Assembly: GCA_028281405.1 (NCBI GenBank)
Contig: JANQKA010000734.1
Span: 1 to 59,028, forward strand
Length of the DNA stretch: 59,028 nucleotides
Direction of reading: 5' to 3'
From: Hasllibacter sp.
GTDB taxonomy: Bacteria > Pseudomonadota > Alphaproteobacteria > Rhodobacterales > Rhodobacteraceae
Made by a program: the position numbers and the translations under genes. The notes beneath the pieces are model-generated. The model made no database searches and was not told where the DNA came from. It saw only the letters and a program-made list of their open reading frames with translations. Below are positions 1-51,200 of this stretch, in pieces (positions within the stretch are counted from its first letter, which is position 1; every line of letters starts with the position of its first letter).

Positions 1-1
1 G

Positions 2-1653: not shown

Positions 1654-1680
1654 CGCCCGTCTCCGAAGAGGAGACGGGCG
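1654..1680. terminator. GC-rich hairpin (11-bp perfect stem, 5-nt loop), possible bidirectional terminator
   Basis: CGCCCGTCTCC-GAAGA-GGAGACGGGCG, about 100 nt after the 1295-1546 ORF. No clean T-tract on the plus strand; a short ATTT follows on the minus strand. Confidence 0.35.
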
Positions 1681-2469: not shown

Positions 2470-2472
2470 GGC

Positions 2473-3756: not shown

Positions 3757-3841
3757 GCGAATCATCCGGGAGGATCCCTTGATCGCGCCCCGGGATCGGG
3801 GTAAGTTGGCGCGAAGCATCGGTAGACACCGGATCCGATCC

Positions 3842-4240: not shown

Positions 4241-4337
4241 CCCGGACGACCGCCGCTCCCCCTTGCGCCCGGCCGGGCGGAAGGGCACAAGGGCGCCGAT
4301 TCGCGGGCATGGGGCCCGCTTGGGATTTTGGTGCCTC

Positions 4338-6365: not shown

Positions 6366-6815
6366 GGATGCGCCGCGCCTCGGCCGCGCACCCGCCTTCG
6401 GCGTTCCGCGTCGCGCCCGCCGCCGTTCCCCGCGGCGGCGGCCGTCGAAGCGTCGGAATCGGCGGGTTGCGGAGCGGCCGATGGCCGCGACGGCCTTCCG
6501 GCCCGCCGGCCGCGAGGAATTTCCCGAGGCCGGGGACGATCGGAAACGGGTGTCCGGAGACCAATTTGAACCGTCCGGCGGCAAGCGGCGCGCGCGTGCC
6601 GGCGATGGCGGGACGGACCCTCGGACCGATGTCGCCCGGTGCGGGTTCCGGAGGTTCGCCGGGGCGCGGGGAATTTCCCGGAAGGCGGTGGAAACCGGCG
6701 GAGAAATGTTGTTTACACCGATTCGGCGCCCCCCGCCGCGGACGCCGCCGGACTTCCGCCGCGCCACGCGGTTCGGGGACGCCGGAACCAGGGAGCGCCG
6801 ATCGCGTGGGACGCC

Positions 6816-27980: not shown

Positions 27981-28533
27981 GTGGATCAGATTCTTGTCCC
28001 GCGTCGGCAAACCATGTGCGCCCGCCGTCGTCCCCCATTGGTTCACTCTCCGCCGTAGCGCGCGGACCCGCCGCGACTTCGAATCATGGCATAGGGCGGA
28101 GATTCCGCGTGGGCTGCTTGAAGTCAACGTTTTCCCGGGATTGGCGGGTCCAGTTCCGCATGGGGCGGACTTGTTCGCCGCACCCGCCCCACGCCGCGGC
28201 CCTTTTCAACCGAATCGTGGTATGAATCGCGGCTTCGGGCCCCGAAAGCGGCGCATCGGACGCGTTCCGTCCGTATACGGGCGGCGAACGTCGGTTGGGC
28301 GAAGGAGCGTCGCGACCCGGGTTTCGGAAATTGAGGCGGCCAACCGGAGAGACGCGGTGGATTCTCCCAGCCCGCGTGTGGCGGCGGGGAGTTGCGCCGG
28401 CTTGAGGCCGTCCGCCCCTGTTTTCGCCCCGCCCTCGCGGGGCGGCGGGTTTGGCGGCGCTGGCTGAGCGGTTGGACGCTCCATTCGCCCCGCCCGCGCG
28501 TGGCGGCGGCGGAATTCGGTGCGGTTGAACGTT

Positions 28534-28555
28534 CCCTCCGGGATCCCTCCGGGAT
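28534..28555. repeat. exact 11-bp tandem duplication (x2)
   Basis: ccctccgggat occurs twice back-to-back, about 160 nt upstream of lepA. Confidence 0.9.
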
Positions 28556-28716
28556 TCGATGCGCCTTGCGGGGCACCGCAACTGACCCGCGGTGTCGGTG
28601 ACCGGATTCCACCCGCGGTGCCTAGGGGGAGTCCGTCCCGGCGTCCCTCGTGGTGACGTCCCCTCCGGGGCGCGGAAGGTCTCGACAAATCCGTGGATTT
28701 GTCGCATATCGCGCCC

Positions 28717-30516
28717 ATGGTCGAACTCTCCCGCATACGCAATTTCTCCATCGTCGCTCACATTGATCACGGCAAGTCGACCCTGGCCGACCGCTTGATC
28801 CAGCGCACCAACGCGGTGTCGGAACGGGAGATGAAGGAGCAGCTTCTCGACGCGATGGATATCGAACGGGAGCGCGGCATCACCATCAAGGCCAACACGG
28901 TCCGCCTTGAATACACCGCCGCGGATGGATTGGACTACGTTCTGAACCTGATCGACACACCCGGGCATGTGGACTTCGCCTACGAGGTTTCCCGCTCCAT
29001 GCGCGCGGTGGAGGGATCGCTTCTGGTCGTTGATTCCACCCAGGGGGTCGAGGCCCAGACGCTCGCCAACGTCTATCAGGCGATCGAGGCGGATCATGAG
29101 ATCGTGCCCGTTCTGAACAAGATCGATCTGCCCGCCTCCGACATCGATCGCGTGGCGGAGCAGATCGAGGAGGTCATCGGAATCGACGCTTCCGGCGCCA
29201 TCCCCGTCTCCGCCAAGACGGGGGATGGCATCGCCGAGACACTGGAGGCGATCGTCACGCGGCTTCCCGCGCCGGTCGGCGATCGCGGGGCTCCGCTCAA
29301 GGCGATGCTCGTCGACTCTTGGTACGACGCCTATCTGGGGGTCGTCGTCCTCGTGCGCGTCATCGATGGAGCACTGAGGAAGGGTGACCGGATCAGGATG
29401 ATGTCGAACGGATCCACCCACCACGTCGACCGGCTGGGCGTGTTCCGCCCCGTCATGCGGGATCATTCCGAACTTGGCCCCGGAGAAATCGGCTTCCTCA
29501 CCGCCTCCATCAAACAGGTGCGCGACACCCGCGTGGGCGACACCATCACGCATGAGAAGGGAGGAGCGGAAACCCCGTTGCCGGGCTTCAATCCCTCCCG
29601 CCCGGTGGTGTTCTGCGGCATCTTCCCCGTCGATAACGGCGAATTCGAGAATCTGCGCGAGGCGATCGGGAAGCTCGCGCTCAACGACGCTTCGTTCACC
29701 TTCGAGATGGAGACTTCCGCCGCCTTGGGGTTCGGCTTCCGCTGCGGTTTCCTCGGGCTGCTTCATCTGGAGGTGGTCCGCGACAGGATCGAGCGGGAGT
29801 ACGGCATCGAACTGATCACCACAGCACCCAGCGTGATCTACAATGTGCACATGCGCGGTGGCGGGATCCTGGAACTCCACAACCCCGCGGACATGCCCGA
29901 TCCGACCAACATCGACCATATCGAGGAGCCGCGCATACGGGCGACCATCATGGTGCCCGACGAATACCTCGGAGATGTCCTCAAGCTTTGCCAGGACAGG
30001 CGCGGGATCCAGGAGGACCTGACATACGCCGGTTCCCGCGCCATGGTCGTCTACGACCTGCCGCTGAACGAGGTCGTGTTCGACTTCTACGACCGGCTGA
30101 AATCGGTGACCAAGGGCTACGCCAGCTTCGACTATCAGATGATCGGTCACCGGGAGGACCACCTCGTCAAGATGCAGATCCTCGTGAACGAGGAACCCGT
30201 CGACGCGCTCTCGACCATGGTGCACCGTGACCGGGCCGAGACGCGCGGGCGCGCCATGGTCGAGAAGCTCAAGGACTTGATTCCCCGCCACATGTTCAAG
30301 ATCCCGATTCAGGCGGCGGTCGGCGGTCGGATCGTCGCCAGGGAGACCCTCGCCGCGCTGAGAAAGGACGTGACGGCCAAATGCTACGGAGGCGACGCGA
30401 CGCGGAAGCGCAAGTTGCTGGACAAGCAGAAGGCGGGGAAAAAGAAGATGCGCCAGTTCGGAAAGGTGGACATTCCGCAGGCGGCGTTCATCGACGCCCT
30501 CAAGATGGACGGCTGA
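28717..30516 (+). CDS. lepA: translation elongation factor 4 (LepA)
   Basis: [39 protein letters not shown]. 599 aa from ATG 28717; an in-frame GTG at 28693 is an alternative start. Confidence 0.95.
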
Positions 30517-30775
30517 AGGGAGCGCCCGTAGCTCGTGATGGGGTCTCGGCCCGTTTCGCTTTTCCACCTTGTCGACGCGGGCCACACAAGCCGTCGCCTT
30601 CTCTTCGCTCCGATCATCTCGGATTCCCCCGGATTGATTGGACCGATTCCGTTGGCGAAGGACTTCCTGACCTCAAGCGGCCCCGCCGGGAGCGCGTCAC
30701 TGTCCGGAAAATCCATCGAAGCCGGAGCCGGGCCGGTCCCGACCGCGCGGCGAGTCCTCCGGAGGGAGATGCCCG

Positions 30776-31813
30776 TCACGCCGCTCGGGAGGAAATGTGA
30801 CGCAGAAGATGCCGGACATCTTCGGGTTCCGCGGGTTTCCTGTGGGCGAGGGCGTTCCGTATCCGCGTCATCGCCGCTAGGCGGTTCGCGTCCTTTTCGC
30901 TCAATTTGTCCGAAATTTGACGATTTAGCGCGCCGAATTCCAACTCGTCGACCGATGAGACGCCCAACCCCCTCGTAAAGTTGTTGACATAAAGAAGGTC
31001 TCGAAACCGTTGAACGAAACGTTGCCGTTCCACTTCGAGAAGTGGAAACAACGAGGTCAATTGGGCCCGCCAAATTCTCGCGCGCAACTCATCCGTGGCT
31101 CCATGCCTCATGAGCGCGAGTGGGCAGGAATCCACTTTTCCGACCTCCCCGGCCGGCGTCATGTCGGGATCCCGCGCGCGGCGGTCCAGCCAAGCCAACG
31201 GGTCAGAAAGGTCGTCCACACCCGCCCGCGCGAGATCCCTGGCCAGATCCAATCTCCTTCGGCAAACTTCCGTCGCGAGAGAGACAGCGAGATCCTCCCC
31301 GGCGCCTCCGCGATTTCCGAATAGATGTTCCTGGGCCCAAATGATGCGGTCTCCCCGGGTGAGGGAGTTTCTCCACGAGGGAAAGGTTTCGACTTCGGAA
31401 ACTTTGATATCCCGGGGCAGGTCGGGCACCAAAATATGAAGACCGGACTCCCGGGGCATCCGCTGTTCCGCGAAGCGGGACAGGAAGGTTTCCCATCCCC
31501 GCCATGAATGAGCCGGAAGCGACGAGAACCGCACCAAAACGCATGTGCCGGTAAATATTTCGGCCATAAGCCCCTCGAGTTTGGGTTCCGCCGAAATCCT
31601 GCGGGCGATGATTCTGGTTGGCTTCCCGTCCAAACGGTCGAGGTCGTGGGGGGAGAGCCGGTCGGTCCCGCCGAAAATGGCGTCCTCCATGCGGCCTGGA
31701 GTCGCGGCGTCGGCGGAGACGAGGGCGATACCCTTGTCCATAAGCGCGGACGCGACCCGGTCCACCCAAGCCGAGAGGCCGGGAAGCGACCAGGCGCTAT
31801 GCTCACCCTTCAT
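30776..31813 (-). CDS. 345-aa protein with C-terminal HEPN-like (Rx4H) motif; candidate RNase effector of the two-gene island
   Basis: Protein-like ORF in the lower-G+C island. Its ATG at 31813 overlaps the last 11 nt of the giant upstream ORF. The C-terminal helix is ...LSEKDANRLAAMTRIRNALAHRKPAEPEDV. The N-terminal ~250 aa are unrecognised. Confidence 0.75.
   Translation of the reverse strand: MKGEHSAWSLPGLSAWVDRVASALMDKGIALVSADAATPGRMEDAIFGGTDRLSPHDLDRLDGKPTRIIARRISAEPKLEGLMAEIFTGTCVLVRFSSLPAHSWRGWETFLSRFAEQRMPRESGLHILVPDLPRDIKVSEVETFPSWRNSLTRGDRIIWAQEHLFGNRGGAGEDLAVSLATEVCRRRLDLARDLARAGVDDLSDPLAWLDRRARDPDMTPAGEVGKVDSCPLALMRHGATDELRARIWRAQLTSLFPLLEVERQRFVQRFRDLLYVNNFTRGLGVSSVDELEFGALNRQISDKLSEKDANRLAAMTRIRNALAHRKPAEPEDVRHLLRHISSRAA
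30842..30859 (-). other. R-N-A-L-A-H: candidate HEPN catalytic Rx4H motif
   Basis: Codons read directly on the minus strand: cgg aac gcc ctc gcc cac. Confidence 0.55.
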
Positions 31814-34800
31814 GAATCAACAAATGCCCGAACGGCGTCACCGAGGGCAGATTGTCCGCGGAACCGTGATTCCGGATGAGATTCAATTCCTCGAGTTTGG
31901 AAATCCGGTCGGAGGAGGTTCCAAACTGCACCATCATGTCCTCCCTCGATGAGATCGCTTCCCTCATTTGGGAGAATTCCCGGAGAAACTCGAGATCCCC
32001 GACGTCGACTCCGATCTCTTCCGCCGTCACGGGATTGCTCCGAAGCCATTCGCGGAGACGTTTTTCGATTTGCGCCTCCGAGCGGGTCTCCACCTCCCTG
32101 AGGACCGGGAGAAGCATTCCAAGCCGGGCCGGGGCGCAACCGGAAGCGGTCATCACCGCCCTCCGGATTTTTTCATTGTCGAAAATCGGGGCCAGATTCT
32201 CAGATGCCAACCAATGCCTCAGCATCGCCTCTGACCAAGGCTTCGCGCGATATATTTTGATTCCGTCTGGTAGAATATCCGGCGTTCGTTCGAGACACCA
32301 TACGGGAATGATCCGGCCATCATCGACGGGTTTCATCTTCGACAGGTCTTCGGCGTCTTTGGCGTTCCATTCTCCCTCCACCACGAGAACCGCCTTTTTG
32401 TCGCCGATGGCGTCGATTTCCCGGCGAAGAGAATTCCTATCCGAGGTGGTCAAGGTATTGGACGAATTCCTTATAATGTCCGCCGCGACCTGAATGCGCC
32501 TCCCCAGACCGGAACCGATGATGACCGGGTGGCCAATGACCAATCTTGTACCCGGTTTCGAGGCGTCGAACAGAAGTTTGATATCTCTGTCCGTAAGGGG
32601 AGCCCTTTCGTCCTTCAGGACCGGTCTCAGCAATGAATGAAATTCGCGGGGATTGTACGTCGGTTCCGACTCCCTCTCTCCAAGCAGGAGAAGAGAGGAT
32701 TCGAGTTGTTCCCGCGTGCCGAGCATTTGCGCCACGAGAGCGCTGCGCAATCCGTACCGGTTTTCACCGAATTCGCTCAATACCCCCAAATCGACCATTT
32801 CCTTCAGGAGCTCCTCGATATCCAGCACGCCGGGGTGGTCGAGGGAGTGAGGCCAGAAGGGCCGCGCCAGATCAAGAAGTCGTTCCGGAGACTCGCCCTT
32901 GGAGAATACTTTTTCATCCCCGCTCGAGGCGTCCAGCCGGTGCAGGGCGAGGGATTTGGCGATGCATTCGTACCGGAGGTCAAGGTTCAACGTCAACTGA
33001 AATCTATCGCGGATCTGCTCGGCGGCCTTGCTCGCCGCTTCACCATCGAACATCGCTTTGTGCGACAAGGCCCATCGTGGCCCGTCGGGATCGGCCAATA
33101 CGCGCCTTCCTATCGACTCAACGATTTGGCGGCAGAAAATCTGCACCAGCGAGGGATAATAATTCATCCGGGTGAGCAAGTCCAGCGCCAGCGTAGGATC
33201 GGCGTAGTCAAGTCCAGCCGCGCGCATGGGATCTGTGGCGAGCCGCCGAAGTGCGGATCGGTTTTCCTTGGTCTGGTTCATCGGTCCGATGCAGATTGGT
33301 TCGCCGAGATGGGGAAGGGGAGAATTCGGTGCTTGGGCCATCCGCCGAACGTTGTGAAGGCCCGCGAACACCGCCTTGAACCTCATCCTGGTGCGTCCCA
33401 TGAGATCCTTCAGCAGCTGCAGATTGGGATACCCGTGTTCATGCTCGTTTTTCAGGAAATTGTCGGATTCGTCGAACATCGTCAGCAACCTTCGGGAAGG
33501 ATCCACCCCGAGCCAGTCCTCGATCTCCCGGACGATGCCGTTGGGATCCTCGATTCTCGGTGGAATTTCGATATGTTCCCGGATATGGTGGAGCAAATCG
33601 CTCCATATCCGCTCCGAGGGAGTTCCGGCGCCTCCGACTGGCCGGATGTCGATGTAAATAGCGAGTTCTCCAATCAATGGCCGGTGACGATCGGATCGGA
33701 TTTTGTTCAGCAGAGCGGATTTGCCCAATTGCCGTCCTCCGTAGATCAGGCATCCTCCGCCGTCGGTCGCCGCGATCCGCGCCACTTCGTCCTGACGGCC
33801 GAAGAACATTTCCGGCGGGATTTCACCAGCCCGAGTGACGTACGGCTGCACCCACCCGAACGGCAATGCGCACGCGAAAAGCGCGGGCAGGGGATCCCCC
33901 CCACGTGTGGCGAGATGTAGAAGAAGCGATTCGTCCACCACAAGCACTTTTCTCGCGTCTGAATGAGCTTTTTGCGCCAAGGCCCTGCGTTCCCTGACGC
34001 TCAATCTGCGAAGAATCATGACGATCCAAGGTTGGTCCGGCGCCTCGTTTGCGATTTCGCGTAGGATTCCCTGTGGCGGCAGGTCTCCCCGGACCACGGC
34101 ACAGCGGTAATGTCCATCCGCTTCGCTTCCGAACGCTGGTGGAATGAACCAACCGTCGGGCTGAATCCAGTTGCATTTTATCGAGAACCCCCGCACTTTT
34201 CCTGGCACGAGCACGATATCGCCCGAAATGTTGACTTTAGTGAATCCGAGACCGCCGAGAACATCTCCGAACGCCCGACGGATCGGGTCGGGTCGGTTTT
34301 GCTTCATCGCGTTCTCCAGTCCCCTCCAATCGGAGAGAACTTGACGGGAGCGACCGCGCTCCGTTTTCTCGAGCCCGGAGAAATCGAGCGGCCCCGTCGC
34401 CCCACCCTCCTTCGCCGCCTGCACTATACGTCCATGGGTCAGGCCCTCCCCATTCGATTCCTCGATGCGCGTCACGAAATCAGGGAAAAAATCCGCGAAC
34501 TCGTCGTGGGCGTCTCGTTCGGGCAACGAAACATCGCGCCCGGCCGATAATTCGGCGACGGCGTCTTCCACGGTAACCGGATCGAGCCTGTGCATTTCGT
34601 CGAGTATTCTTTTCGCGGATTCGCCGAGCGGCCCGCCTTTTTGGGTTAGAATTTCAAGCTGCCGCTTTTGCCTCCCCGTGATTTCATCGGTCAATTCGCT
34701 CCGCCTCTTCTCGAATTCCGACAGAACATCGTCGAGTTCGGGAAAATCCGGCGGGATGCCGGGCACTCTCGCCTCCGATGCGGCCGGAAGTGTGACGTCG

Positions 34801-37724
34801 CCGTTTCCGTCGGTCGCGGACAGCGCGACGGAAATCGCCGAAATCTGGGTCAAAATATCGTGGACTTCATCGCGGCTTTCAAAATTGAGGTAGGAAATTG
34901 TCGCGAAGGATTGCCGCAATCCCGCGACCTGATCGCGCGCTTTCTCCCGGGCCGAGTCGAGTGCCTCATCCAGCATTTGCTGATACTCTTCCATCTTTGA
35001 CTCATTCGCGGTGCCATCTCGCTTCAATATTTCCAGAATTTCCCGCGAAGCGAGGATGGCATGTTCCTTTATTCGTTGACCAAACGCCTCGGAATAGTTC
35101 GCCGCGATGCATTCTTTGTTGGACAGCGATCGAAGCATCCGATTGTCCCGACGTGTCCGTTCCTCATCGAATGACTCGTCGGCACTCCCCGTCCAATCCT
35201 GGCATCCTCCGGGAAGGCGCAACAACGGTGTTTCGGACATGTCCTTGACCCTACGGAGAGAATACAACGCACCTTTTCCATCGAGCAAACCACGAATATC
35301 TTCAAGGCTATCGCGCAGCACCGCATTGGCCGCGGAGGCGAGCGTGCTGGTGGACGGCGCGCTCCCGGTGACCGGTTCGCCTGTGCTCACGCTCTCCGCC
35401 CCGTCCGCCGCCGCGTCCAATTCCCTGCGAATCTCGCCGACCGCCCGCAGCAGCGATTTATGATCTTTCGTGGTGGCGGCCCGCTCCTTATGGGCATTCC
35501 GCCAATCCCGGAGCAGGTCGCACGCCTCTTGCAGATTGCGGCAGAACCAACCAAGCGCCATTCCGTCAATGCGACTGTTCTTCGGACGTCCGCCTCTCAG
35601 CGCCGCCTCCTCGACGAACAGTTCCTGCGCGCCCCGGTCGTCGTCCCATTTTCCGATGAACTCTTCGACGATTCCCGCCGCCTCGGGGGTATCGGACATG
35701 GCCGCATTGAACGCCCTGCCGATTACTCCCGATGGCTCCAATTCCTCGTGAAAAATTTTGTAAGTTGGTTGGTGCGCCGTTTTTCGGAGGCGCGCGCGCT
35801 CTATCCAATTTTTCATCGCTTCGCGGACTTCCGTCAGACGTTCGTCGGTTTTCGCCCCGGCGAGGTCCGCCAGAATTTTCTCTGAAAATTCGATCTCGTA
35901 GCCCAGGTCCGAAAGTGTTTCCACCAACCGGGCGGTGTTTTCCGTAGCCGCTTCGCGCGGCAATTTTCGTAATTCGTTCCGCGCTCCGTAGGATGGCGCG
36001 AAGAGCGCGGGACGCAGCAACGCGGCGAGCGCGAGTCGACCGGCCGCGGCCCGATCACCCGCCTTTGAAAGGGAATCCATCATTTCCGCCATCACGGTGC
36101 TTCGCTGCCGCTCGCCCATATCGGCCATAGTACGCACGCCGCGAAGCATGAGCAGACCCCAAAGAACCGCCGCGGGTATCTCGGGCGTTTCTCCCCGGTC
36201 TTCCCGAAGCCGGGCGAGGTGCCAAGCGAATACAATTTCGCCTTCCCGGAGGAAGCGGGAGAGCGCCTTGGACAGGATTTTCGCGCGCGCTCCAGGTTTG
36301 ACGCCCGAATCTTGATCGTTGAGCCCGGTCTTTGGGGTGGCGACTTTTGCGCCGGATTTAATTTCCGTTTGCCCGCGCGTTGGCCGCGCACCTTGGCTTG
36401 GCACCCGAGTTTTCGATGTCGGAACCGAATCCTCTTGCTGTTTCTTGTCGGACGGATCCCGTTTCGTCCCGCGTTGGTTGGCATCGAAGCTTTCTTTTCC
36501 GGAGGAAATTCCGAGCGCTGGCCGCTCCTTGGAATCGGGTGGAGGAGCAACCGCAACTGTTTTGTCATTCGGTGACGGTGGCTCTTCAATTGCGTCCCCC
36601 GCCCCCGTGCGTCCTTGTTTCCGAATTCCGCGCTTGGGCTGGGACGGAGCCTCGTCCGTGGCTCTCACGGCTGGGGAATCCCGCTCTGGAGCGGCTTCGC
36701 TTGTTGGTTCAACTTCGATTTTTTCTTTGTCCGTTTCCGTTTTGATTTCTTCCGGCTTCGAGCGGTGCGCGCTCGCGTCGACGGGAAGCGACCGCTCGAG
36801 TTCTTCCCGGGCGGCCTGGGCACGGACCGAGAGGCTTTCGCGGCGCCCGAAGGCCTCTTTCTGCAATGGCACCAACCGCAGTTGAGTTTCGAAGTCGCCG
36901 CTGTCGACCGCCATTCTCGCCTCGTCCTTCAGCGACTCGACCTCGGAATCCGCCTTATCGGCCGCGGCTCTGGCGGACTCGAGCTCGGACAGTAGGGCAT
37001 CGATATCTTCCAGATGCCCGGTGCCGGGTTCATCGGGAAGGAGGCTTAGCAGACCCGCGTCGATTTCCGAAATGCGTTTCGCGATGTCAGATCTGCGCTT
37101 GGCGAGATTTGCGCGCTCTCGTTGTTCGGCTTTTCCGCACTCGTCGACGAGCCGTTTCGCCAGATCGAGAATTTCTTGCGCCGATTCCGCTTTCGGCGTG
37201 ATTAGGGATCGCGCCTTTTCGGCGATTGAGTGTGAAATGGAGGCCCAATCCTCCAGTCCAGCGCGTTCGTCGTCGACGGCATGGTTGGATACCGTCGTGG
37301 TGTCCTTGGATTCCGATTCATCGTTGAGCATCGTAAGGAAATCCAGTAGAAACGCTTCGAACGAAAAGGGAGAAACCTGTCCAGAGTAATAATCCAGCCG
37401 CTCGAAGAATTTAATCCGGTTTTCGAATGGATCTTCCCCGATATACGAGGCGATATGGTCCAACGCCCGATGGTGGAACGTATTTTTTTGTTTTCTCTCG
37501 GGTATCCGTCGATCGAATTCACGCAGTTCCTCGATTCCGTCTCCGGACATCATTATGGATAGCGCGGAATAGAATTGGCCATCGTCCCGCAGGTTGTCGC
37601 GGTCGATGAACCTTTCAAAGAGATCGGCGTTTTCCCGTCGGTGGCTGGGAACGATGCGAAAGCCCTTCTTGATCTCGCGGACGTAGGCGGCCGCCTTTGG
37701 TGCCGTGATGGTCTCCTGATTCAT
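31803..37724 (-). CDS. giant (~1,973 aa) multidomain protein: coiled coil, low-complexity linker, helical region, REase-like module, ORC/STAND-like P-loop NTPase, wHTH-like and C-terminal domains
   Basis: Stop-free for 1,973 codons in DNA of only about 52-58% G+C by hand count of two 60-nt lines, which cannot be a G+C artefact. FFGRQDEVARI..GGCLIYGGRQLGKSALL (Walker A), RRLLTMFDESDNFL (Walker B), NYYPSLVQIFC (sensor-like). ATG 37724 (MNQETITAPK) is preceded by GAGGAA; ATG 37802 is an alternative start. The reading frame stays open upstream into eamA. Confidence 0.8.
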   Translation of the reverse strand: MNQETITAPKAAAYVREIKKGFRIVPSHRRENADLFERFIDRDNLRDDGQFYSALSIMMSGDGIEELREFDRRIPERKQKNTFHHRALDHIASYIGEDPFENRIKFFERLDYYSGQVSPFSFEAFLLDFLTMLNDESESKDTTTVSNHAVDDERAGLEDWASISHSIAEKARSLITPKAESAQEILDLAKRLVDECGKAEQRERANLAKRRSDIAKRISEIDAGLLSLLPDEPGTGHLEDIDALLSELESARAAADKADSEVESLKDEARMAVDSGDFETQLRLVPLQKEAFGRRESLSVRAQAAREELERSLPVDASAHRSKPEEIKTETDKEKIEVEPTSEAAPERDSPAVRATDEAPSQPKRGIRKQGRTGAGDAIEEPPSPNDKTVAVAPPPDSKERPALGISSGKESFDANQRGTKRDPSDKKQQEDSVPTSKTRVPSQGARPTRGQTEIKSGAKVATPKTGLNDQDSGVKPGARAKILSKALSRFLREGEIVFAWHLARLREDRGETPEIPAAVLWGLLMLRGVRTMADMGERQRSTVMAEMMDSLSKAGDRAAAGRLALAALLRPALFAPSYGARNELRKLPREAATENTARLVETLSDLGYEIEFSEKILADLAGAKTDERLTEVREAMKNWIERARLRKTAHQPTYKIFHEELEPSGVIGRAFNAAMSDTPEAAGIVEEFIGKWDDDRGAQELFVEEAALRGGRPKNSRIDGMALGWFCRNLQEACDLLRDWRNAHKERAATTKDHKSLLRAVGEIRRELDAAADGAESVSTGEPVTGSAPSTSTLASAANAVLRDSLEDIRGLLDGKGALYSLRRVKDMSETPLLRLPGGCQDWTGSADESFDEERTRRDNRMLRSLSNKECIAANYSEAFGQRIKEHAILASREILEILKRDGTANESKMEEYQQMLDEALDSAREKARDQVAGLRQSFATISYLNFESRDEVHDILTQISAISVALSATDGNGDVTLPAASEARVPGIPPDFPELDDVLSEFEKRRSELTDEITGRQKRQLEILTQKGGPLGESAKRILDEMHRLDPVTVEDAVAELSAGRDVSLPERDAHDEFADFFPDFVTRIEESNGEGLTHGRIVQAAKEGGATGPLDFSGLEKTERGRSRQVLSDWRGLENAMKQNRPDPIRRAFGDVLGGLGFTKVNISGDIVLVPGKVRGFSIKCNWIQPDGWFIPPAFGSEADGHYRCAVVRGDLPPQGILREIANEAPDQPWIVMILRRLSVRERRALAQKAHSDARKVLVVDESLLLHLATRGGDPLPALFACALPFGWVQPYVTRAGEIPPEMFFGRQDEVARIAATDGGGCLIYGGRQLGKSALLNKIRSDRHRPLIGELAIYIDIRPVGGAGTPSERIWSDLLHHIREHIEIPPRIEDPNGIVREIEDWLGVDPSRRLLTMFDESDNFLKNEHEHGYPNLQLLKDLMGRTRMRFKAVFAGLHNVRRMAQAPNSPLPHLGEPICIGPMNQTKENRSALRRLATDPMRAAGLDYADPTLALDLLTRMNYYPSLVQIFCRQIVESIGRRVLADPDGPRWALSHKAMFDGEAASKAAEQIRDRFQLTLNLDLRYECIAKSLALHRLDASSGDEKVFSKGESPERLLDLARPFWPHSLDHPGVLDIEELLKEMVDLGVLSEFGENRYGLRSALVAQMLGTREQLESSLLLLGERESEPTYNPREFHSLLRPVLKDERAPLTDRDIKLLFDASKPGTRLVIGHPVIIGSGLGRRIQVAADIIRNSSNTLTTSDRNSLRREIDAIGDKKAVLVVEGEWNAKDAEDLSKMKPVDDGRIIPVWCLERTPDILPDGIKIYRAKPWSEAMLRHWLASENLAPIFDNEKIRRAVMTASGCAPARLGMLLPVLREVETRSEAQIEKRLREWLRSNPVTAEEIGVDVGDLEFLREFSQMREAISSREDMMVQFGTSSDRISKLEELNLIRNHGSADNLPSVTPFGHLLIHEG
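33462..33488 (-). other. Walker B LLTMFDESD of the giant protein
   Basis: A hydrophobic strand followed by D-E, about 80 aa after the P-loop. Confidence 0.7.
33717..33740 (-). other. Walker A P-loop GGRQLGKS of the giant protein
   Basis: Minus-strand codons gga gga cgg caa ttg ggc aaa tcc, approximately aa 1329-1336. Confidence 0.8.
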
Positions 37725-37973
37725 TTCCTCGGTCCTCTTCGTCGTCGTGGCGAGGCCGCGCCTAGTTGCCCGGACAGCCCCTCCGGTGGTGGTGGTCGGC
37801 ATATGCGAGGCTGAGGACGAGCGCAAGCGCCCGAAAAAATTCCCACCTCCGCGGCGCGCGCCGCTGTCGCCCCTTACGACAGGGGCGGTGGGGCGGGCAA
37901 GGAAAAATTTGTCGGCCTCCGAACTCGTCGGCGGGTCTGGGCAAGGTTTGCTAGGGACCGGTCCTCCCGTGGT

Positions 37974-38840
37974 GGATTCTCGGTCGCGGTCCAGTGAGAC
38001 GATGGCGAGTCCGGCGAACACCAGAGCGGCTCCGAGGAGCGTGGCCGGCGTCACGGTCTCGCCCACGACCGCCACTGCGAGGATCCATGCGGTCAGCGGT
38101 TCCGCGAGCGCCAGCGTCACGCCCGTCGCCACGGTCACCCGGCCGAGGCCCCAAGTGTAGAGGGCGTAGGAAACTCCCGTCGCCCCGACGCCCAGAAAGG
38201 CGAGCGCGAGCAGCGCGCCCGGGTCGAAGACCCATCCAAGCGGAACGATCGCCAGCACGGGCAGGGCGAGGATGGCCGCTGCGGAGAATGTTCCCGAGGC
38301 GATGGCGACGGGTTCCGCTCGCCCGACCATGCGTCCCGTTAGGATGGAGTAGGTGGCGTAGGAGGCGCCGGCCAGCGCCGCGAGGGCGATTCCGAGAACG
38401 CCACCCTCCGCCTTCGCGCCGGACAGGGCGAGAAGCGCGGCTCCCGATATGGCCGCGAACTGGGCGGCGGCGCGGGTCGGAGTCGGAGGGCGTCCCCTCG
38501 CGAAGTCGAAAAGACCAACCCAAACGGGCGCGCTGCCGATGGCGATGGCTGTGCCGATGCCCACGCCCGCCAGCGTGACGGCGCTGAAGAAGAGCAGGTT
38601 GTAAGCGGCGATCGCGATCCCGGCGCAAATCATCGGCCGCCACGGCAGGCCGCGGAAGGATGTGCGCCGCAGGCGCGCCAAGGCGAGGAGGGAGAGAGCG
38701 CCGACGCCGAGACGGACCGCGGCGACGACCAAGGGCTCCCGCGCTTCGGGCAGCAGGGCTTGGGTGGTTCCGGTGGACCCCCACAGCGTCGCCGCGGCGA
38801 TCACGGCGAGAACGCCGGCGAATCGTTTCTCCGATGCCAT
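37974..38840 (-). CDS. EamA/DMT-family 10-TM transporter domain (3' boundary undefined: no in-frame stop before 31803)
   Basis: MASEKRFAGVLAVIAAATLWGSTGTTQ... has two EamA-like halves with about 10 hydrophobic helices ending ..VFAGLAIVSLDRDRES. High G+C like the backbone. The same frame continues without a stop into the giant ORF. Confidence 0.75.
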
Positions 38841-38930
38841 GCGGAGGCTTTCGCAGAGAGCGTTGTCCCGCGCAAGTTCCACCTGAGCGAATCGCCCGGG
38901 ATGCTCGCATCGCCGCCGGGTGTGGCTTAG

Positions 38931-40358
38931 ATGGGCTTCATGCCGACCAAAACTCCGGTGATCTGGTGGGTCCGGCGCGACATGCGCTTGGCCGACAATC
39001 CCTGCCTCGCCGCCCTTGTCGAGACGGGACGGCCGGTGATTCCCGTGTTTCTGCTCGACGAAGTTCTGGAAAGCCACGGAGCGGCGCCCAAATGGCGCAT
39101 GGGGTTGGCGGCGGAGTGTTTCGCGGAGCGGCTTGCCGGGAAGGGATCGCGGTTGATCTTCCGGAGGGGCGGGGCGTCCCGCGAACTGGGCCGCCTCGCG
39201 GAGGAAACGGGAGCGGGGGCCGTTTGGTGGACGCGGGCGTACGACGCCGAAGCGCGGTCGAGGGACCGGGCGGTTTACGAGGGACTCAAGGATCGGGTGG
39301 ACGTCCGCGCGGTGGACGGGCACCTCTTGATGGAGCCATGGTCGGTGAGGACCGGGTCGGGTGGTCCCTACAAGGTCTACACGCCTTTCTGGCGCGCCGT
39401 GAAGGACCGCGGTCCGGGGGGCGGGTGGCCGCGCGTGTCGAAAATCCCCGCGCCGGGCCGATGGCCGGAGAGCGAAAATATTGCCGACTGGAACCTCGGA
39501 AGGGAGATGCGCCGCGGGGCGGCCGTGGTGCGGGAGCATGTCCGGGTGGGCGAGGCCGAGGCGCTGAAGCGGCTCCGCGTGTTCGCGCGCGACCGGTTGT
39601 CGCACTACGGGGACGCGCGCGACGATTTGGCGCGGCCCGGCACCTCGGAACTGAGCGAACACCTGACCTATGGAGAAATAGGGCCGCGCACATGCTGGGA
39701 CGTCGGCGAGCGTGGGATGCGGGAGGGCGCCCCGGGGGCGGAGGCCTTTCTGAAGGAGCTTGTCTGGCGCGAGTTCGCCCATCATCTGATGTGGCATTTT
39801 CCGGACATGGCGGAGGCGAACTGGCGATCCGAATGGGACGCCTTTCCTTGGAAAACCGACGAGCGGTCGAGGGAGGTCCGGCGTTGGAAGGAGGGTCGCA
39901 CGGGGGTCGAGATCGTCGATGCGGCGCAGCGCGAGATGTATGTCACGGGGACGATGCACAATCGCGCGCGGATGATCACCGCCTCCTACCTGACGAAGCA
40001 CTGCCTCGTGGATTGGCGGGTGGGACGCGCGTGGTTCGAGGATTGCCTGATCGACTGGGATCCCGCGTCGAACGCCTTGGGCTGGCAATGGGTCGCGGGA
40101 TCCGGACCGGACGCCGCGCCCTACTTCCGCGTGTTCAATCCCGAATCCCAGGCGGAGAAATTCGACGTGGATCGTCGTTACCGCGACCGATGGCTCGCCG
40201 AGGGACGGAGGCGTCCATCCCGTGACGCGCTCAGCTATTTCGACGCGATTCCGGAAAGATGGTCCATGGCCCCGGGCGACGTCTACCCCGACCCGGTGGT
40301 TGGAGTGAAGGAGGGGAGGGAGGCCGCTCTCCGGGCGTACCGGGATTTCAAGTCGTAA
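38931..40358 (+). CDS. phrB: deoxyribodipyrimidine photo-lyase
   Basis: 475 aa. VIWWVRRDMRLADNPCL, TSELSEHLTYGEIGPR, WREFAHHL, GWQWVAGSGPDAAPYFRVFNP. Confidence 0.92.
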   Translation: MGFMPTKTPVIWWVRRDMRLADNPCLAALVETGRPVIPVFLLDEVLESHGAAPKWRMGLAAECFAERLAGKGSRLIFRRGGASRELGRLAEETGAGAVWWTRAYDAEARSRDRAVYEGLKDRVDVRAVDGHLLMEPWSVRTGSGGPYKVYTPFWRAVKDRGPGGGWPRVSKIPAPGRWPESENIADWNLGREMRRGAAVVREHVRVGEAEALKRLRVFARDRLSHYGDARDDLARPGTSELSEHLTYGEIGPRTCWDVGERGMREGAPGAEAFLKELVWREFAHHLMWHFPDMAEANWRSEWDAFPWKTDERSREVRRWKEGRTGVEIVDAAQREMYVTGTMHNRARMITASYLTKHCLVDWRVGRAWFEDCLIDWDPASNALGWQWVAGSGPDAAPYFRVFNPESQAEKFDVDRRYRDRWLAEGRRRPSRDALSYFDAIPERWSMAPGDVYPDPVVGVKEGREAALRAYRDFKS

Positions 40359-40714
40359 GCGGAAATTCCTGTTTGGTGGAGGTGGCCCCGCGGCGCGGCC
40401 GTCCTTCGAAGGAACCGTTGCAACATCCAAGCGACGGCCCGGTCTGGAATTGTTGGCGCGGAAACCATCGGAGAGGTCCGTGAACAGGAGTGTCCCTGGC
40501 CCCGGCCGGGTAAGCTTTCCACGGGATGGAATTTCCGCATCTTGGCCCGGAGGCGGTTTACATCGTGCTTGGCGACGCGGCGGCCGGAACCTCCGCATGG
40601 CGGGACGAAGCGGCGGTCGAAGCGCTCGATTCCCTGACCTCGAATCCCCCTCGGATTGGTTGAATCGAACGTCGACGGGCCCTAGAGCGGGGAGGCACGA
40701 AAGGGAGGCGCCCG

Positions 40715-45215: not shown

Positions 45216-45290
45216 GAGTGATTCGCGGGAGGTCCGCCGGTGAGGATGTTCCGGCGCCCCGCGCGACAGCGAGTAACGATGGAGTACGAG

Positions 45291-48200
45291 ATGCGTGACG
45301 ATTTTCTTCCCTTCCCCATCCGGGGTTCCAAGGTTGGCGGCGCCTTCGGGCGCGTTCCCTCCGGCATGATCGCCGGATCCGCGGCGGCCCTCGGGGCGCT
45401 CGCCGGATGCGGCGGCGATGACGTCGGCGGAGGCGCCGTCGGAGTCGGAGTTCTCAACGAAACGGGCGACATGCTCTTGGGAGGCGACGGGAACGACAGG
45501 ATCACCAACCGCGGGGAAGTCGGCGCCATCGAAGCGGGCGGCGGGGACGACACGATCTTCGGCGCCGCGGTCGCCGAAGCGATCAGGGCCGGCGCGGGCA
45601 ACGACGTGATCGACGGGGGCGCGGGCGACGACACGATCGACGGCGGCGTGGGCGACGACATGATCATCGGCGGCGTGGGCGACGACAGGATGAACGGCGG
45701 GGAGGGCGGCGCGGATTCCGGAGGTTTCGACACCGCGGTCTACGAGGACGCGTGGACGGGGTACCGCCTCGGCGGCGAACGGGCCTCCGGAGAGTGGGCG
45801 GTGTTCACGGTCCTGGACATGGACGCCGGAGACGGAATGGTGGACGAGGGCGAGGACGAATTGACCGGTTTCGAGGCGATCCGGTTCGGACGGGTCACCC
45901 TCGAGGTCGTGGAAACCGGCACCGACGCCGGCGATATCCTCATCGGTTCCGAGCGGGCGGCCGACGGGTCGGCGGAAGCCGCCTTCGACGGCGGCGCGGG
46001 CGACGACATGATATTCGGCTTCGGCGGCGGGGACACGATCGCGGGAGGGGAAGGCGGCGACGTCATCGCCGGCGGCGCGGGAGACGACACGCTTTATGGC
46101 CACTCCGCGGAAAGCAACGGCGGGGAGGCGGAGGGCGTCATCGACACGGCGGCCTTCGGAGGCGCCCCGTCCGGCTTTCGGATCACGGCGGAACTGGGCG
46201 ATTTCGGCCACCGGGGGATGATAAGCGACGTAGTCCAACTCACCGTGATGGATATCGACACGGAGGGGGACGCGGTCGACGAGGGCACGGATACCCTGAT
46301 CGGCTTCGAGGCCCTTCGGTTCGACGAAGCGTCGTCGTCGACGACGCTATTGGTTACCCGGACCGCCTCGGACGACGGGGAGGTCCTGCTTGGGACGGAA
46401 GGCCCGGACGGGACACTTGACGGCATGGGGGGCGACGACCTGTTGTTCGGGTTCGAAGGCGACGACACGATCTTGGGCGGCGCGGGAAGCGACATCATCT
46501 CCGGCGGGGCCGGCGCGGACACGGTCACCGGCGGCCCGGGCGACGACAGACTCTTCGGCCACGCGGAGGACGGCGACGGCGACGGAGCGGGCGTCGTGGA
46601 CACGGCCGTTTATGTGGACGCGCGCGCCGGATATCTCATTTCCGCCGTTCCGGCCGGCGCCAACGGGGCGGTTCTCGCCGTCCGGGACGCCGACACCACC
46701 GCCGGGGACGAAGGCGTGGACACCCTGACGGGCTTCGAGGCGCTCCGCTTCGGTGACGGGACATTCCGGGTGGCCGGATCGGGTTCCAACGGCGGAGATA
46801 TCCTCCTGGGCACGGATGGAAACGACTCGGCGGAAACCACCCTCCACGGCATGGACGGCCGCGACACGATTTTCGGATTCGCGGGGGATGACATCATCAG
46901 CGGCGGCGATGGAGACGACATCCTCGACGGTGGGGCGGGCGACGACATCCTCGACGGAGGGGATCACGACACCGCGGACACGGCGGTTTATCATGGACGA
47001 TACAACGGCGGCATAGGATCCGATTACGTTTTCCAGACAATAAGGATCCACGAGAACGGGGTCGCCGTGGACTTGCTGACCGTGACGGACATCGGCGCGG
47101 ACGGCCGCTCCGGGGACGGGGTCGACGAGGGGCGGGACATTCTGCGCGGCGTCGAATTTCTGAATTTCGCCGACCAGAGGGGCGTCGCCACGTCCACCGT
47201 GTCGACGACGCTGGCCGACATCGTCGGGGATGGATTGGACAACACGCTCGAGGGCGACATCGAGGACCAAAGGATTTCGGGAGGAGGAGGCGCCGACCGA
47301 ATCTTCGGCGGAGGCGGAAACGACAGGGTGGACGGCGGCGCGGACGACGACACGTTCGTGTTCGTCGGCGAAAGACAGTTCCACACGGTCACGCTCGCTT
47401 CGGATGGCGCGGGGGCGGATTCGATAGTCGTGAGCGACGGAATCGGAGGCGCGGCGGTCATGAGGAACATCGAATCGGTCGAGTTCGCCGACGCGACGCT
47501 GGAGGTGTCGGGCACGGGAGATGGTTCGGACGCCAACGACATCGTGTTCGGCGCGGTGGAGAACGACACGGTTTCGGGAGGCCTTGGCGGCGACGTGATT
47601 TTCGGCTTTCACGGAGTGGACGCCATCGAAGGCGGGGAGGGCGACGACGTGATCGATGGCGGCGCCGGAAACGACACCGCGGTTTACGCGGGCGCCATCC
47701 GCGACTTCCAAATCACCCGGGAAAACGTTGCGCTCGTGGTGCGGGACGCGAGGGCCGCCGATGGGGTGGACGAGGGACGCGACACCTTGACGAATGTGGA
47801 AATCCTCCGGTTTGGAAACGTGGAAGTGGCGGTGTCGGACATCCACTTCGCGACGGGGAACTCCGGACAGGTGGTCGGCCACGCCACCCGGAGCGGCGTT
47901 TTCCATGGCGAGGGCGGCGGCTATACATTCGTGAGCTTCGGGGCAAGCGACCGATTCCAATTTCTCACCGGGATGGACAGCACGTCTTCGAGCAAAACCA
48001 CGATCCTGGGGTTCGACGGGAGCGGTGGGGACAGAATCGCGTTGGCGGATATCGACGCCCTGCGCGGCCTCGGCGCGGAAATGATGACGGATGACGAGGG
48101 GACGTTCACCCGGCTCGGTCACGACGAGTCGGATTTCGAATTGGATATCCGCGGCCATCACGCCGACATCCTCGATCACATAAACTACATCGGCGGCAAG

Positions 48201-51200
48201 ACCATCGGAGTGACGGGCGCGTTTCAGGACACCTTGCCGCTGACGAACGGTTCCGGACGTGGCCTCCCGGACTTGACGTCGTGGTTCGACCACGCCGAAC
48301 AGGGCGAAACGCTGTCCTTTGGCGCGACGGTGGACGGAACGGACCTGAACGCCGCCGGGATCGGACTGACTTTGTCGGCGGACGGCGTGCTCACGGGTGT
48401 TTATTCGGGTACTTCCAACGCCAAGGTCCGGGTGACCGTCACGCAGGTGAATGGTGAACGCGCGAATGCGGAATTCACCATCGCGGCTCTGACGGGCGAC
48501 CTCGACGGCACCGCGGACGGCGAGACCCTCGTGGACTCCACGACGCTCGGGAGGGTCGTCAACGGGTTGGGTGGCGACGACGTGATCCATGGCGGGGAGG
48601 GTGATGACGCTCTCCATGGCGGAAGCGCCACGGTCGGCGTCGCGATCGGAACGGACAACGACATCGCCGTCTATGACGGCGCGCTCGACGGCTACCGAGT
48701 TTGGGCGGAATGGGTCACCATTGGTGGCGTTGAAACCCCTCGGTTCACCGTGCGCGACATACGTGGCGAGGGCGCGGATGACGAAGGCGAAGACACGGCG
48801 GTCGGCTTCGAGGTGTTCCGGTTCGGCGATGGCGACAGAAGGGTGGTCAACGCCGACAATGCCACCGAGGCCAACGATATCGTCTTCGGCACGGACGCGG
48901 GCGGGACCGTTGACGGAAATGGGGGAGCCGACCTGATCTTCGGTTTCGGAGGCGTGGACATCCTGAACGGTGGCGCCGGCGGGGACATGATGATGGGGGG
49001 CGGAGGAGGCGACACCCTGGACGGAGGCGCCGGCAGGGATATCGCGGTGTACCGCGGTGCGCGGATTGATTACACGGTCACGGAACTCCGGTTGGCCGAC
49101 GGCGGCATCAGGCACGAGGTTCGGGACGACAACCCGGTTGGACGCGAAGGTGACGGCACCGATATTTTGATGAATGTCGAGGCGTTGCGGTTCCTTGGCG
49201 ACGACCCCGCCTCCTCGGGCGGGGACACGGTGGACATTTCCCCGGAATGGGTGATCGAGATCAGGGGATCTTCCGGTCCCGACGTCATTGAAGTCGGCGA
49301 CGGTCCACAGACCATCGCCGGAGGCGGGGGGGCGGACACGATCAGCGGGGGGCCCGGAGCGGACACGATCGCGGGAGGCGAGGGCGACGACGTGATCCAT
49401 GGTCATCGCGCGGATGATCATGTCGAGACGGCAAATGAAATCGACACCGCCGTGTTCGCGGGTTCCGCGGCAAGTTACAGCGTCACCGCCGTGATCGGAA
49501 ACTCCCCTCCCGGGATGAACGGGATCGTGACTTTCACGGTCCGGGATATCGACGCGGATGGCAACGGCGGCGACGACGGAATGGACACCGTGGACGGATT
49601 CGAGGCGTTCCGGTTTGGAAGCGATACGTTCGCGGTGGTGCGGGCGGACAGGGCCGGCGGCAACGGCGTGAATGAGATCGTCATCGGGTCGATGGGGGCG
49701 GACGTGGGGGGAACGGCGATCGACGGCGGCTTGGGTGACGACCTTATCTTCGGGTTCGGCGGGGGAGACGCGATCGACGGCGGCGAAGGCGAAGACACGA
49801 TCATGGGCGGCGATGGAGACGACGTCATCGAGGGAGGAATCGGAGGATTGGACACCGCCGTGTTCCGAGGCGACCGGGACGAATACAAGATCACGGCGGT
49901 TCTGCGGACCAACGGGGAATCCACCCAATACAGGGTTGATGATGAAATGCCAAATGAGCATGAAGACGATGGCGAGGACATTTTGACAGGAATCGAGAAT
50001 CTTCGGTTCATCGGGGACGCCCTCCTGACACCGACCGTAGTGGCCGCGGCGTTGGACTCGGCGAATGTCATTTTGGGGAGTTCCGGACGGGATGACATCA
50101 CAGGCGGCGATGAAGATCAGGAAATCGAGGGCGGTGCGGACAATGACACGATCGCCGGTGGCGGAGGCAACGACACGATCACGGGAGGTGATGGAGACGA
50201 CGTGATCGAGGGCGGACACGGGGCGATGGACACCGCGGTGTTCCGAGGCGAACGGAGGGACTACGAGATCACGGCGAACCTGCGTCCCAATGGCGGCGCC
50301 ACCCAATACACGGTCGATGATGAGATGCCAATTGAGCACGGCGACGATGGCGAGGACACCTTGACCGGCATCGAGATTCTCCGGTTCATTGGGACGTCCC
50401 CCGGACGGCCGGACGATTTGATGGTTGACATTTCCATGGCTGATGTCATCAATGGATCATCTGATGGGGAAACCATCAACGGCGGCAATGGTTCTCAGGA
50501 GATCACCGGCGGCGGAGGGAGGGATATCATCGACGGTGGCCTCGGGGCGGATGTCGCGGTGTTCGCCGGACCTTTGTCCGGTTATAAAGTCTACACTTCT
50601 GAAATCTTTTCGGATTACTCTGGAATAACAGTGGAAGACACGTCTCCGAGCAGTTATGGATCCGATGGGATCGATATTCTGAACGGCATTGAGAAAATCC
50701 GATTCGGATCGGAAACGAACGCGCCGAAAACATTCACGGTTGGAAAAAATTCCGCGTCGATGAATGAACATGAATTACTCTTGGGCATCGATGGAAATCA
50801 GACCATGCAAGGCTTGGGAGGTGACGACATCATATTCGGATTCGGTGGTCGGGACGAGATTTTCGGTGGCACGGGAAACGATTTATTGTATGGTGGAGCG
50901 GGGAACGATAAAATCTATGGGAACGCCGGAAACGATATAATTCATGGCGGGACGGGAACGGACACCATTTATCCGGGTGGCGGAACAGACCTCATCACGG
51001 TTGATACCACATCGGGGAGTCTCGATAATATTATATTTGTAAATTCCATTGAGAGATTCTCCTTTTACAGGGATGGCAGGGATAAAATCGGAATTGAAGA
51101 CCTAGCGTCCTCTGGATCCGTGAATCATGAGGGGCGAAACACGATTGAGGCCAAATTTTTTCCCGCGACATCGAAATCGGCCTTGGCATTTTTGAACTTT

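Follow-up and report, generated by a model that had tools for sequence, protein, structure and literature searches.

A question raised by a 59,028-nucleotide (nt) stretch of DNA from Hasllibacter sp. (positions 1 to 59,028 of contig JANQKA010000734.1, assembly GCA_028281405.1; this whole stretch is called the window here) is what function can be attributed to a pair of overlapping genes, one encoding a protein of 1,973 residues, hereafter the giant, and the other a 345-residue partner. A first-pass annotation, made from the sequence alone, had taken the giant for a candidate core of an undescribed defence or conflict system. The analysis presented here led us to propose that the giant is an ATP-dependent sensor or scaffold that would license a neighbouring effector, at this locus a HEPN RNase that would cleave RNA and cause abortive infection; we regard the case for this proposal as evenly balanced. 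The two genes are:

31803..37724, minus strand: giant gene (open reading frame [ORF], start codon and Shine-Dalgarno-like GAGGA; N-terminus in agreement with the homologues L013/L014; full-length homologues)
30776..31813, minus strand: partner gene, 345 residues (N-terminal domain plus predicted C-terminal HEPN domain; start overlapping the giant stop by 11 nt)

The giant carries an ORC/Cdc6-STAND-type ATPase

The 1,973-codon ORF and the sequence motifs quoted in the first-pass annotation were found where they had been reported: FFGRQDEVARI begins at residue 1307, GGRQLGKSALL at 1329, LLTMFDESD at 1413, NYYPSLVQIFC at 1521 and the winged-helix-turn-helix-like segment at 1645. From the N-terminus to the C-terminus, the following parts could be distinguished:

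36735..37724, minus strand: residues 1-330, helix-rich, candidate variable input region (lowest conservation and occupancy in a 77-sequence alignment)
36285..36734, minus strand: residues 331-480, low-complexity linker rich in Pro, Ser, Thr, Lys and Glu (residue composition)
34368..36284, minus strand: residues 481-1119, all-alpha region with long helices and conserved length (AlphaFold model m69d40a1f4dc0)
33840..34367, minus strand: residues 1120-1295, conserved alpha/beta domain, previously called 'REase-like' (element order, conservation over 155 representatives)
32655..33839, minus strand: residues 1296-1690, ORC/Cdc6-STAND-type AAA+ NTPase, including a helical lid and a winged helix (profile, Foldseek, Pfam)
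33717..33740, minus strand: Walker A GGRQLGKS, residues 1329-1336, with Lys1335 (motif in alignments)
33462..33488, minus strand: Walker B LLTMFDESD, residues 1413-1421, with D1418 and E1419 (motif in alignment)
31806..32654, minus strand: residues 1691-1973, conserved C-terminal domain, previously called 'second P-loop' (about 300 residues in nearly all homologues)

The proposal of an ORC/archaeal-ATPase/STAND-type NTPase with a winged helix is borne out by sequence profiles, by the predicted structure and by domain matches in a homologue. A 10-sequence profile matched the archaeal ATPase 2fna (6e-6), the STAND protein PH0952 (9e-5) and Cdc6 (0.05) in the PDB. With the AlphaFold model of the ATPase (pLDDT, the predicted local distance difference test score, of 75) the best Foldseek match was Orc1/Cdc6 (3e-7), followed in this order by TnsC, ORC subunits, Avs3, Apaf-1 and CED-4, and homologue L019 shows AAA_22 above the Pfam cut-off plus matches to AAA_16 and ATPase_2. 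These data support the assignment of the giant ATPase, with its winged helix, to the ORC/Cdc6-STAND class of AAA+ NTPases. Residues G, G, R, L, G and K of Walker A are invariant in alignment A1, with Q nearly so, and in alignment A4, of 43 sequences, the whole motif hardly varies; the DExD residues of Walker B are invariant in A1. Across the aligned homologues FxGRxxE, GGRQLGK, DExD, AGLHNV and TNYYPSLIQ are all invariant or nearly so, and FFGRQDE, a STAND motif of the hhGRExE type, lies upstream of Walker A. Such conservation of Walker A, Walker B and FxGRxxE implies a working NTPase, and the giant is predicted to be active as such.

The C-terminal domain keeps its length whether the HEPN partner is present or not. 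The motifs that had been read as a second P-loop are located at residues 1731 and 1778, but the family consensus contains neither GK[ST] nor a Walker A lysine, and we have abandoned that reading; matches of the domain to the PDB were all sub-significant.

The first-pass annotation had recognised nothing in approximately the first 1,150 residues of the giant, and these indeed gave no match in Pfam, NCBIfam or PADLOC, or among PDB sequences. Residues 1-330 gave no match in Pfam or PDB sequences, and the all-alpha region contains no Pfam family among 54 homologues and has no relative among PDB sequences. Blocks of the linker between them consist of 70-75% P/G/S/T/Q/N/E/K/D and 17-22% hydrophobic residues, a composition that suggests that residues 331-480 are probably disordered, and the sequences of homologues show similar acidic or Pro-rich stretches. 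The AlphaFold model of residues 545-1305 (pLDDT 83) is wholly helical up to around residue 1160, and no Foldseek match to the PDB was obtained with it below E=0.2. The all-alpha segment is 680-780 residues long in 70 of the 73 aligned homologues; in three cyanobacterial loci (L052, L059, L078) it spans only 265 residues in automated ORF calls.

The alpha/beta domain in front of the ATPase had been proposed to be a restriction endonuclease-like module. The order of its elements in the AlphaFold model, H-E-E-E-H-E-H-E-H, fits the alpha-beta-beta-beta-alpha-beta core of the PD-(D/E)xK fold, although the whole-model Foldseek search returned nothing below the E-value given above. Over 155 representatives W1133, G1160, PxFGS (1196-1200), G1204, Y1206 and R1207 are conserved, together with D1264 (100%) and E/D1265 (96%), which follow strand 5, the last strand; the conserved polar residues are S1200, Y1206, R1207 and D1264-[E/D]1265. 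The catalytic D...(D/E)xK signature is not conserved over the same representatives, there is no (D/E)xK on strand 3, and none of the nuclease families of Pfam was found in 54 homologues. Since both the signature and any PDB or Pfam match are missing, residues 1120-1295 are treated here simply as an alpha/beta domain, which is probably not a nuclease.

A predicted HEPN RNase is coupled to the giant

The existence of a coupled HEPN partner, also part of the earlier proposal, agrees with the gene overlap, with the conserved motif of the partner and with weak matches to HEPN families. The motif was located as follows:

30842..30859, minus strand: HEPN motif RNALAH, partner residues R319-H324 (R319 and H324 invariant in 43 partners)

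In the alignment of the 43 partners, W107, W248, P257 and R263 are invariant as well as R319 and H324 of RNxLAH. HEPN_Swt1 was matched by 11 of the 43 (best E 0.004, all below the Pfam cut-off), and there were single matches to other models of the HEPN superfamily, DUF4145 and Ribonuc_2-5A. The C-terminal domain of the partner is therefore referred to as a predicted HEPN RNase. No match to the partner was found among PDB sequences, and its N-terminal 230 residues or so match nothing in the databases searched.

Genomic contexts were counted in 80 genome loci, to which 10 metagenomic contexts were added. A HEPN partner gene follows the giant in 42 of the genome loci and in 6 of the metagenomic contexts, directly downstream except in L018, L021 and L062, where the giant frame is interrupted. 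Both genes overlap by 4-11 nt across loci, 11 nt being the value in the window, and this arrangement supports a predicted translational coupling of the partner to the giant. The two closest homologues of the partner (52-54% identity) belong to two-gene modules; one of these has insertion sequence (IS) elements on both sides, and the other is the neighbour of a canonical Druantia III system.

Two possible relationships between the proteins were discarded. A heterodimer of like domains, formed by the C-terminal domain of the giant and the N-terminal domain of the partner, was rejected on an hhalign probability of 0.3%, and profile comparison detected no relation by which the latter domain could be an inactive, iSTAND-like copy of the giant ATPase.

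The giant belongs to a large, patchily distributed family

The size of the family had been overlooked in the first-pass annotation, as had its strongest recurrent links, which are to DruE helicases, HKD-Snf2 helicases and pPIWI-RE. A word-indexed search, in which only 10 relatives were found, had suggested a rare family, which proved to be a search artefact overturned by an exhaustive hidden Markov model (HMM) search and a genome scan. In the exhaustive profile search over 1.84 billion representatives, 2,545 proteins (around 2,500 clusters at 50% identity) were recovered at E<=1e-30. The core of the best 150 of these 2,545 could be aligned essentially end to end, with one protein truncated at its N-terminus, and most were 1,700-2,100 residues long. 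When 185,579 species-representative genomes were scanned with a pattern, at least 568 matching stretches were confirmed, which is a lower bound. Among the matches listed are Alpha-, Beta- and Gammaproteobacteria, Cyanobacteria, Acidobacteriota, Myxococcota, Chloroflexota, Bacillota, Verrucomicrobiota, Planctomycetota, Spirochaetota, Bacteroidota and Thermotogota, and the family was found on 28 plasmids and in no phage record. Its distribution over many phyla and plasmids is patchy.

Family members that are named in the source carry the label 'ATP-binding protein', 'hypothetical protein' or 'AAA family ATPase', and there is no Pfam, NCBIfam or PADLOC model for them. At E<=1 the window giant had no match in NCBIfam, and neither it nor three divergent homologues had one in PADLOC within the common body, the sole exception among giants being an MzaA-like (sigma-70) insert in the cyanobacterial proteins. 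The window copy and the same three homologues were likewise compared, at E<=1, with BrxC/DUF499/HmaC, Avs, CoCoNuT CnuB and the other proteins listed in PADLOC, and all of these identities were discarded. A description of the giant was not found in the literature under the topics of pPIWI-RE, DruH, YprA/ARMADA, DruE+HEPN+AAA+ and HEPN+Cdc6+STAND, in a search that covered few subscription journals. The earlier statement that no named system can be assigned stands in the domain and defence databases searched (Pfam, PADLOC, NCBIfam).

Homologues are found with exchangeable partners in defence islands

The giant is accompanied by the HEPN gene only, as in the window, in 33 of the 80 loci. DruE-family helicases without DruH adjoin it in 23 loci overall. 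Seven of the 80 loci combine a DruE-family helicase with the HEPN partner: DruE-giant-HEPN operons are present in five loci (L014, L019-L022), among the closest relatives of the window giant (L019 and L022 are from Tabrizicola), and their DruE gives a full-length match to PADLOC DruE3 (E=0); in L061 and L090, which also have the HEPN partner, DruE is encoded 1-4 kb downstream, on the opposite strand. Another 16 loci, lacking both HEPN and DruH, contain a protein of around 500 residues, a compact DruE of 1,646 residues and the giant. Loci L023-L038 and L083 (approximately positions 1-6400 in each; mostly Rhodobacteraceae) show the gene order of this operon, in which a 430-560-residue protein with no match in Pfam or PADLOC is followed by the 1,646-residue DruE and then by the giant. 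In L003 (5779-8004), from a metagenome-assembled genome of Thermoleophilia, an unannotated 741-residue protein, also lacking Pfam and PADLOC matches, lies between a 2,015-residue DruE-like helicase and the giant.

In cyanobacteria, an HKD-Snf2 helicase-nuclease (PADLOC C3a139) is encoded beside a longer giant, mostly of about 2,450 residues (16 of the 80 loci). Giants of this length are seen in L045 (5177-12532) and likewise in L047, L053, L054, L056 and L063-L066, from Microcoleus and its relatives. These giants include, in their N-terminal part, a complete set of sigma-70 regions (1.2, 2, 3 and 4) at residues 234-496, read by PADLOC as an MzaA C-terminus, and the sigma-70-bearing gene directly follows that of the HKD-Snf2 helicase. 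It is unusual for a defence-type ATPase to contain a sigma factor.

Other genes associated with the giant encode superfamily 1 (SF1) helicases, RNaseH-SF1 helicases, or a DrmE_C/HEC-07-like protein plus a helicase. In P0008/L008 (4709-13501) the whole giant body is fused to a pPIWI-RE, which occupies the N-terminal position, and similar fusions are carried by plasmids of Azospirillum, Bradyrhizobium and Microvirga. The pPIWI-RE::giant fusions, including those of the Bradyrhizobium elkanii and Microvirga plasmids, are part of operons with pPIWI_RE_REase and a helicase. On the Azospirillum ramasamyi plasmid (L093, 7258-14469) a second, unfused pPIWI-RE gene is present beside the fusion.

Genes found nearby include BrxR/WYL regulators, a P4-type integrase, IS66, IS21, canonical DruH/DruE, AddAB-like proteins, cytosine methylases and Fic. 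Strong PADLOC matches among 111 neighbours of two-gene loci were QatD, mad2, BrxC, PsyrT/A, DruF, DrmMI/II, PprDinG and restriction-modification (RM) methylases; BREX, DISARM, Qat, MADS and RM are represented among the neighbouring defence systems. These observations lend qualitative support to the location of giant homologues in anti-phage defence islands, and the original suggestion of an undescribed defence candidate is upheld.

Comparison with known systems

The closest analogue of the giant in terms of logic is the BrxC/DUF499 group. BrxC/PglY and DUF499 (HmaC) are large ATPases of the ORC/Cdc6-STAND-type AAA+ class, in which a winged helix is accompanied by additional alpha+beta domains and by helical extensions; they have been proposed to act as scaffolds and scanners, and their genes accompany those of Snf2 helicase-nuclease effectors (HKD-Snf2 in type-2 BR) and often that of a HEPN back-up endoRNase (PMC12839542). 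As in BREX and BR/Hma, giant loci combine an ATPase, a helicase-nuclease and HEPN. However, the giant has no match to Pfam DUF499 or to PADLOC BrxC/HmaC, its ATPase comes after around 1,300 residues, near the C-terminus, whereas it is N-terminal in BrxC/DUF499, its HEPN is a separate protein rather than a fused domain, and the recurrent giant operon types contain no methyltransferase or PglZ.

With regard to Druantia type III (DruE plus DruH), DruE3 (PADLOC E=0) or the compact DruE abuts the giant, which thus occupies the place expected for the non-helicase partner, and canonical DruH-DruE also adjoins giant two-gene modules; unlike in that system, no DruE adjoins the island in the window. DruH is a ssDNA (single-stranded DNA) binder of about 1,100 residues that abounds in Ig-like domains and has no ATPase activity (10.64898/2026.05.12.722862; 10.64898/2026.05.13.724758). 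The giant has no YjiT/DruH domain and no PADLOC DruH match, and was ruled out as a DruH. A survey of YprA helicases mentions a 'Druantia type III-like' branch and does not describe a giant partner.

Avs and other STAND NTPases share with the giant an NTPase switch of the STAND/ORC radiation and a nuclease-type effector, besides the fold similarity to Avs3, Apaf-1 and CED-4. In contrast to Avs, the giant and its effector are two polypeptides, the domain that precedes the ATPase lacks nuclease residues, there is no C-terminal repeat sensor, and no Avs HMM of PADLOC was matched at E<=1. Finally, the pPIWI-RE systems (pPIWI-RE, REase and DinG-type helicase) resemble part of the family in that the whole giant body is placed C-terminal to pPIWI-RE inside their operons (P0008, several alphaproteobacterial plasmids), a fusion on which the 2013 description of pPIWI-RE is silent (PMC3702460), but there is no PIWI, REase or DinG gene in the window.

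The pair in the window is on an acquired island

The pair (30776-37724) has a GC content of around 0.59 and a GC content at third codon positions (GC3) of 0.66-0.69, the giant itself giving 0.66, vs 0.65-0.67 and 0.82-0.85, respectively, in neighbouring genes. This drop places both genes on an acquired island of approximately 7 kb between lepA and eamA/photolyase. An origin of the giant as a chance ORF of GC-rich DNA was ruled out by its GC3 and by its full-length alignment to hundreds of homologues. Direct repeats or att sites were searched for at the ends of the island and none was convincing; promoter or terminator signals at the island were not notable either. The gene at its upstream edge is:

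37725..38732, minus strand: EamA transporter gene, stop codon missing, reading into the giant (Pfam EamA 9e-22; GC/GC3 shift; upstream edge of the island at about 37.95 kb)

The giant had been described as a single stop-free ORF. The ORF is real, with its ATG start and the GAGGA sequence upstream, but the open frame does not end there: it runs past 37724, upstream to 40598, through the EamA gene, which has no in-frame stop and is followed by some 85 codons of non-coding-looking sequence before the giant ORF. Public gene calls report an EamA-giant fusion (2,345 or 2,359 residues) because the EamA stop codon is missing. Alignment to homologues, of which L013/L014 are the nearest, sets the N-terminus of the giant at or near 37724. 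The insertion of the island probably removed the original 3' end of the EamA gene.

Elsewhere in the window, a 2,219-residue RTX-type protein with 16 calcium-binding nonapeptide stretches is encoded at 45240-51899 (plus strand), and a decrease of GC to around 0.53 suggests a second acquired segment around 50-52 kb. Long antisense ORFs (at least 833 residues) are found opposite lepA (28084-30585, minus strand) and the photolyase gene (38660-40598, minus strand); they are considered GC-rich shadow ORFs and not genes, because the GC3 pattern favours the plus-strand genes.

Proposed role and alternative explanations

The model that we propose starts from what was observed above on the types of domain, the conserved motifs, the coupling of the genes and their genomic associations. 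The two genes would constitute a compact anti-phage or anti-plasmid conflict module, acquired as the island of around 7 kb, in which the giant would be both sensor and switch. The signal may be received by the lineage-variable helical N-terminal body and the conserved alpha/beta domain, while the ORC/Cdc6-STAND-type AAA+ module with its winged helix would bind ATP and, upon the trigger, change its state or oligomerise. Assembly would probably take place on nucleic acid, as for ORC, Cdc6 and TnsC, and the active assembly would then license the effector. In the window this would be the 345-residue partner, whose HEPN domain (RNxLAH) would be made to dimerise into an active form, leading to RNA cleavage and arrest of the infected cell. 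In other lineages the same giant is wired instead to helicases or helicase-nucleases (DruE, HKD-Snf2 or SF1 helicases), or to the pPIWI-RE/DinG set. Because its helicase, HEPN and pPIWI-RE partners are interchangeable, the giant behaves as a swappable hub. A bolder extension of this idea, which we hold tentatively and consider doubtful, is that the giant represents a new class of ORC-like immune hub, an ATP-driven platform for HEPN RNase, DruE, HKD-Snf2, pPIWI-RE and a built-in sigma-70, which in Druantia-like operons would replace DruH and load or license helicases on foreign DNA.

Several observations weigh against the sensor and effector model. The window copy is located among housekeeping genes (lepA, mreB, photolyase), outside any defence island, and the defence genes around its homologues come without a matched control, so that they lend qualitative support only to a defence-island setting. 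No TPR, WD40, LRR or other sensor repeat array of the STAND type was found with Pfam, and the C-terminal 280 residues form a compact domain. As to the partner, the HEPN assignment is drawn from the motif and from Pfam matches below threshold; profile comparisons of its N-terminal domain with the C-terminal domain and the ATPase core of the giant were negative, and direct contact between both proteins is presumed.

In the principal alternative, the giant would mainly serve, in the manner of ORC/Cdc6, to load large helicases onto foreign DNA or to be their platform there, in the place of DruH, with HEPN as no more than a back-up suicide effector; the window locus would then be a reduced one, whose helicase has been lost, and it may function poorly or only if a helicase is supplied by another locus. 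This fits the fact that proteins of the ORC/Cdc6 AAA+ type are helicase loaders, the proposal of BrxD as loader of BrxHI (PMC12839542), the presence, at about half of the loci, of a helicase gene overlapping or adjoining that of the giant (full-length DruE3, compact DruE, HKD-Snf2, SF1, RNaseH-SF1), and the DruE-giant-HEPN operons of the closest relatives (L014, L019-L022). It is harder to reconcile with the 33 of 80 loci that consist of giant and HEPN only, with the two-gene modules flanked by IS elements in which the closest partner homologues are also found, and with the intact state of both window genes, in which all motifs are present. Furthermore, annotation of the genes flanking the island (lepA, eamA, photolyase) revealed no helicase among them. 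We consider this alternative unlikely, though better placed than those that follow.

Less likely than either the sensor and effector model or a helicase loader is pattern recognition as in Avs and other STAND proteins, where the helical body would bind a conserved phage protein and form an oligomer that activates the partner RNase, with no role for DNA. The similarity to Avs3, Apaf-1 and CED-4 obtained with Foldseek is to be expected in this case, as are the FxGRxxE motif and the GxP-like TNYYPSLIQ, which characterise STAND proteins and archaeal ATPases, a weak nSTAND1 match in P0007 and a variable N-terminal region, such as an arms-race sensor should have. Yet the structures closest in fold are those of DNA-bound ORC/Cdc6 and TnsC, and the family shows persistent links to DNA helicases and to pPIWI-RE; neither Avs nor other STAND-defence models of PADLOC were matched, and the sensor-sized region is N-terminal rather than C-terminal, with no TPR, WD40 or LRR array. 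Taken as a whole, we find this explanation quite unlikely.

A selfish function is a further alternative, and a very unlikely one, also less likely than the two foremost readings. HEPN proteins are common toxins, as in HEPN/MNT toxin-antitoxin pairs, and the fact that the module is carried by plasmids, neighbours integrases and is flanked by IS elements would suit an addiction module in which a HEPN toxin restrained by the giant stabilises islands, plasmids and IS-flanked segments instead of providing immunity. Nevertheless, a conserved ATPase of 2,000 residues is implausible as an antitoxin, about half of the family keeps the giant without a HEPN gene, and the association is specifically with defence helicases. 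A housekeeping role of the giant as an ORC-like organiser of DNA in chromosome or replication function, its defence-like neighbours being coincidental, would agree with the ORC/Cdc6-type fold, the winged helix and the core genes around the window copy, but is hardly credible for a patchy family (at least 568 matching stretches over 185,579 species genomes) whose members occur on plasmids and next to IS elements or integrases with variable partner genes, and whose window copy is a low-GC island.

Should the module protect against phages, a widespread defence component that current annotation tools miss entirely would be added to those already described; it would also account for 'orphan' DruE helicases without DruH and provide a new partner for pPIWI-RE systems. 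The two-gene module would be a tractable case for studying the control of a HEPN RNase by an ORC/STAND-type ATPase, and the recurrent swapping of partners offers a natural experiment in the recombination of immune sensors and effectors. If the reading of the giant as a hub or loader were true, helicase loading, a principle of replication initiation, would be a bacterial immune mechanism.

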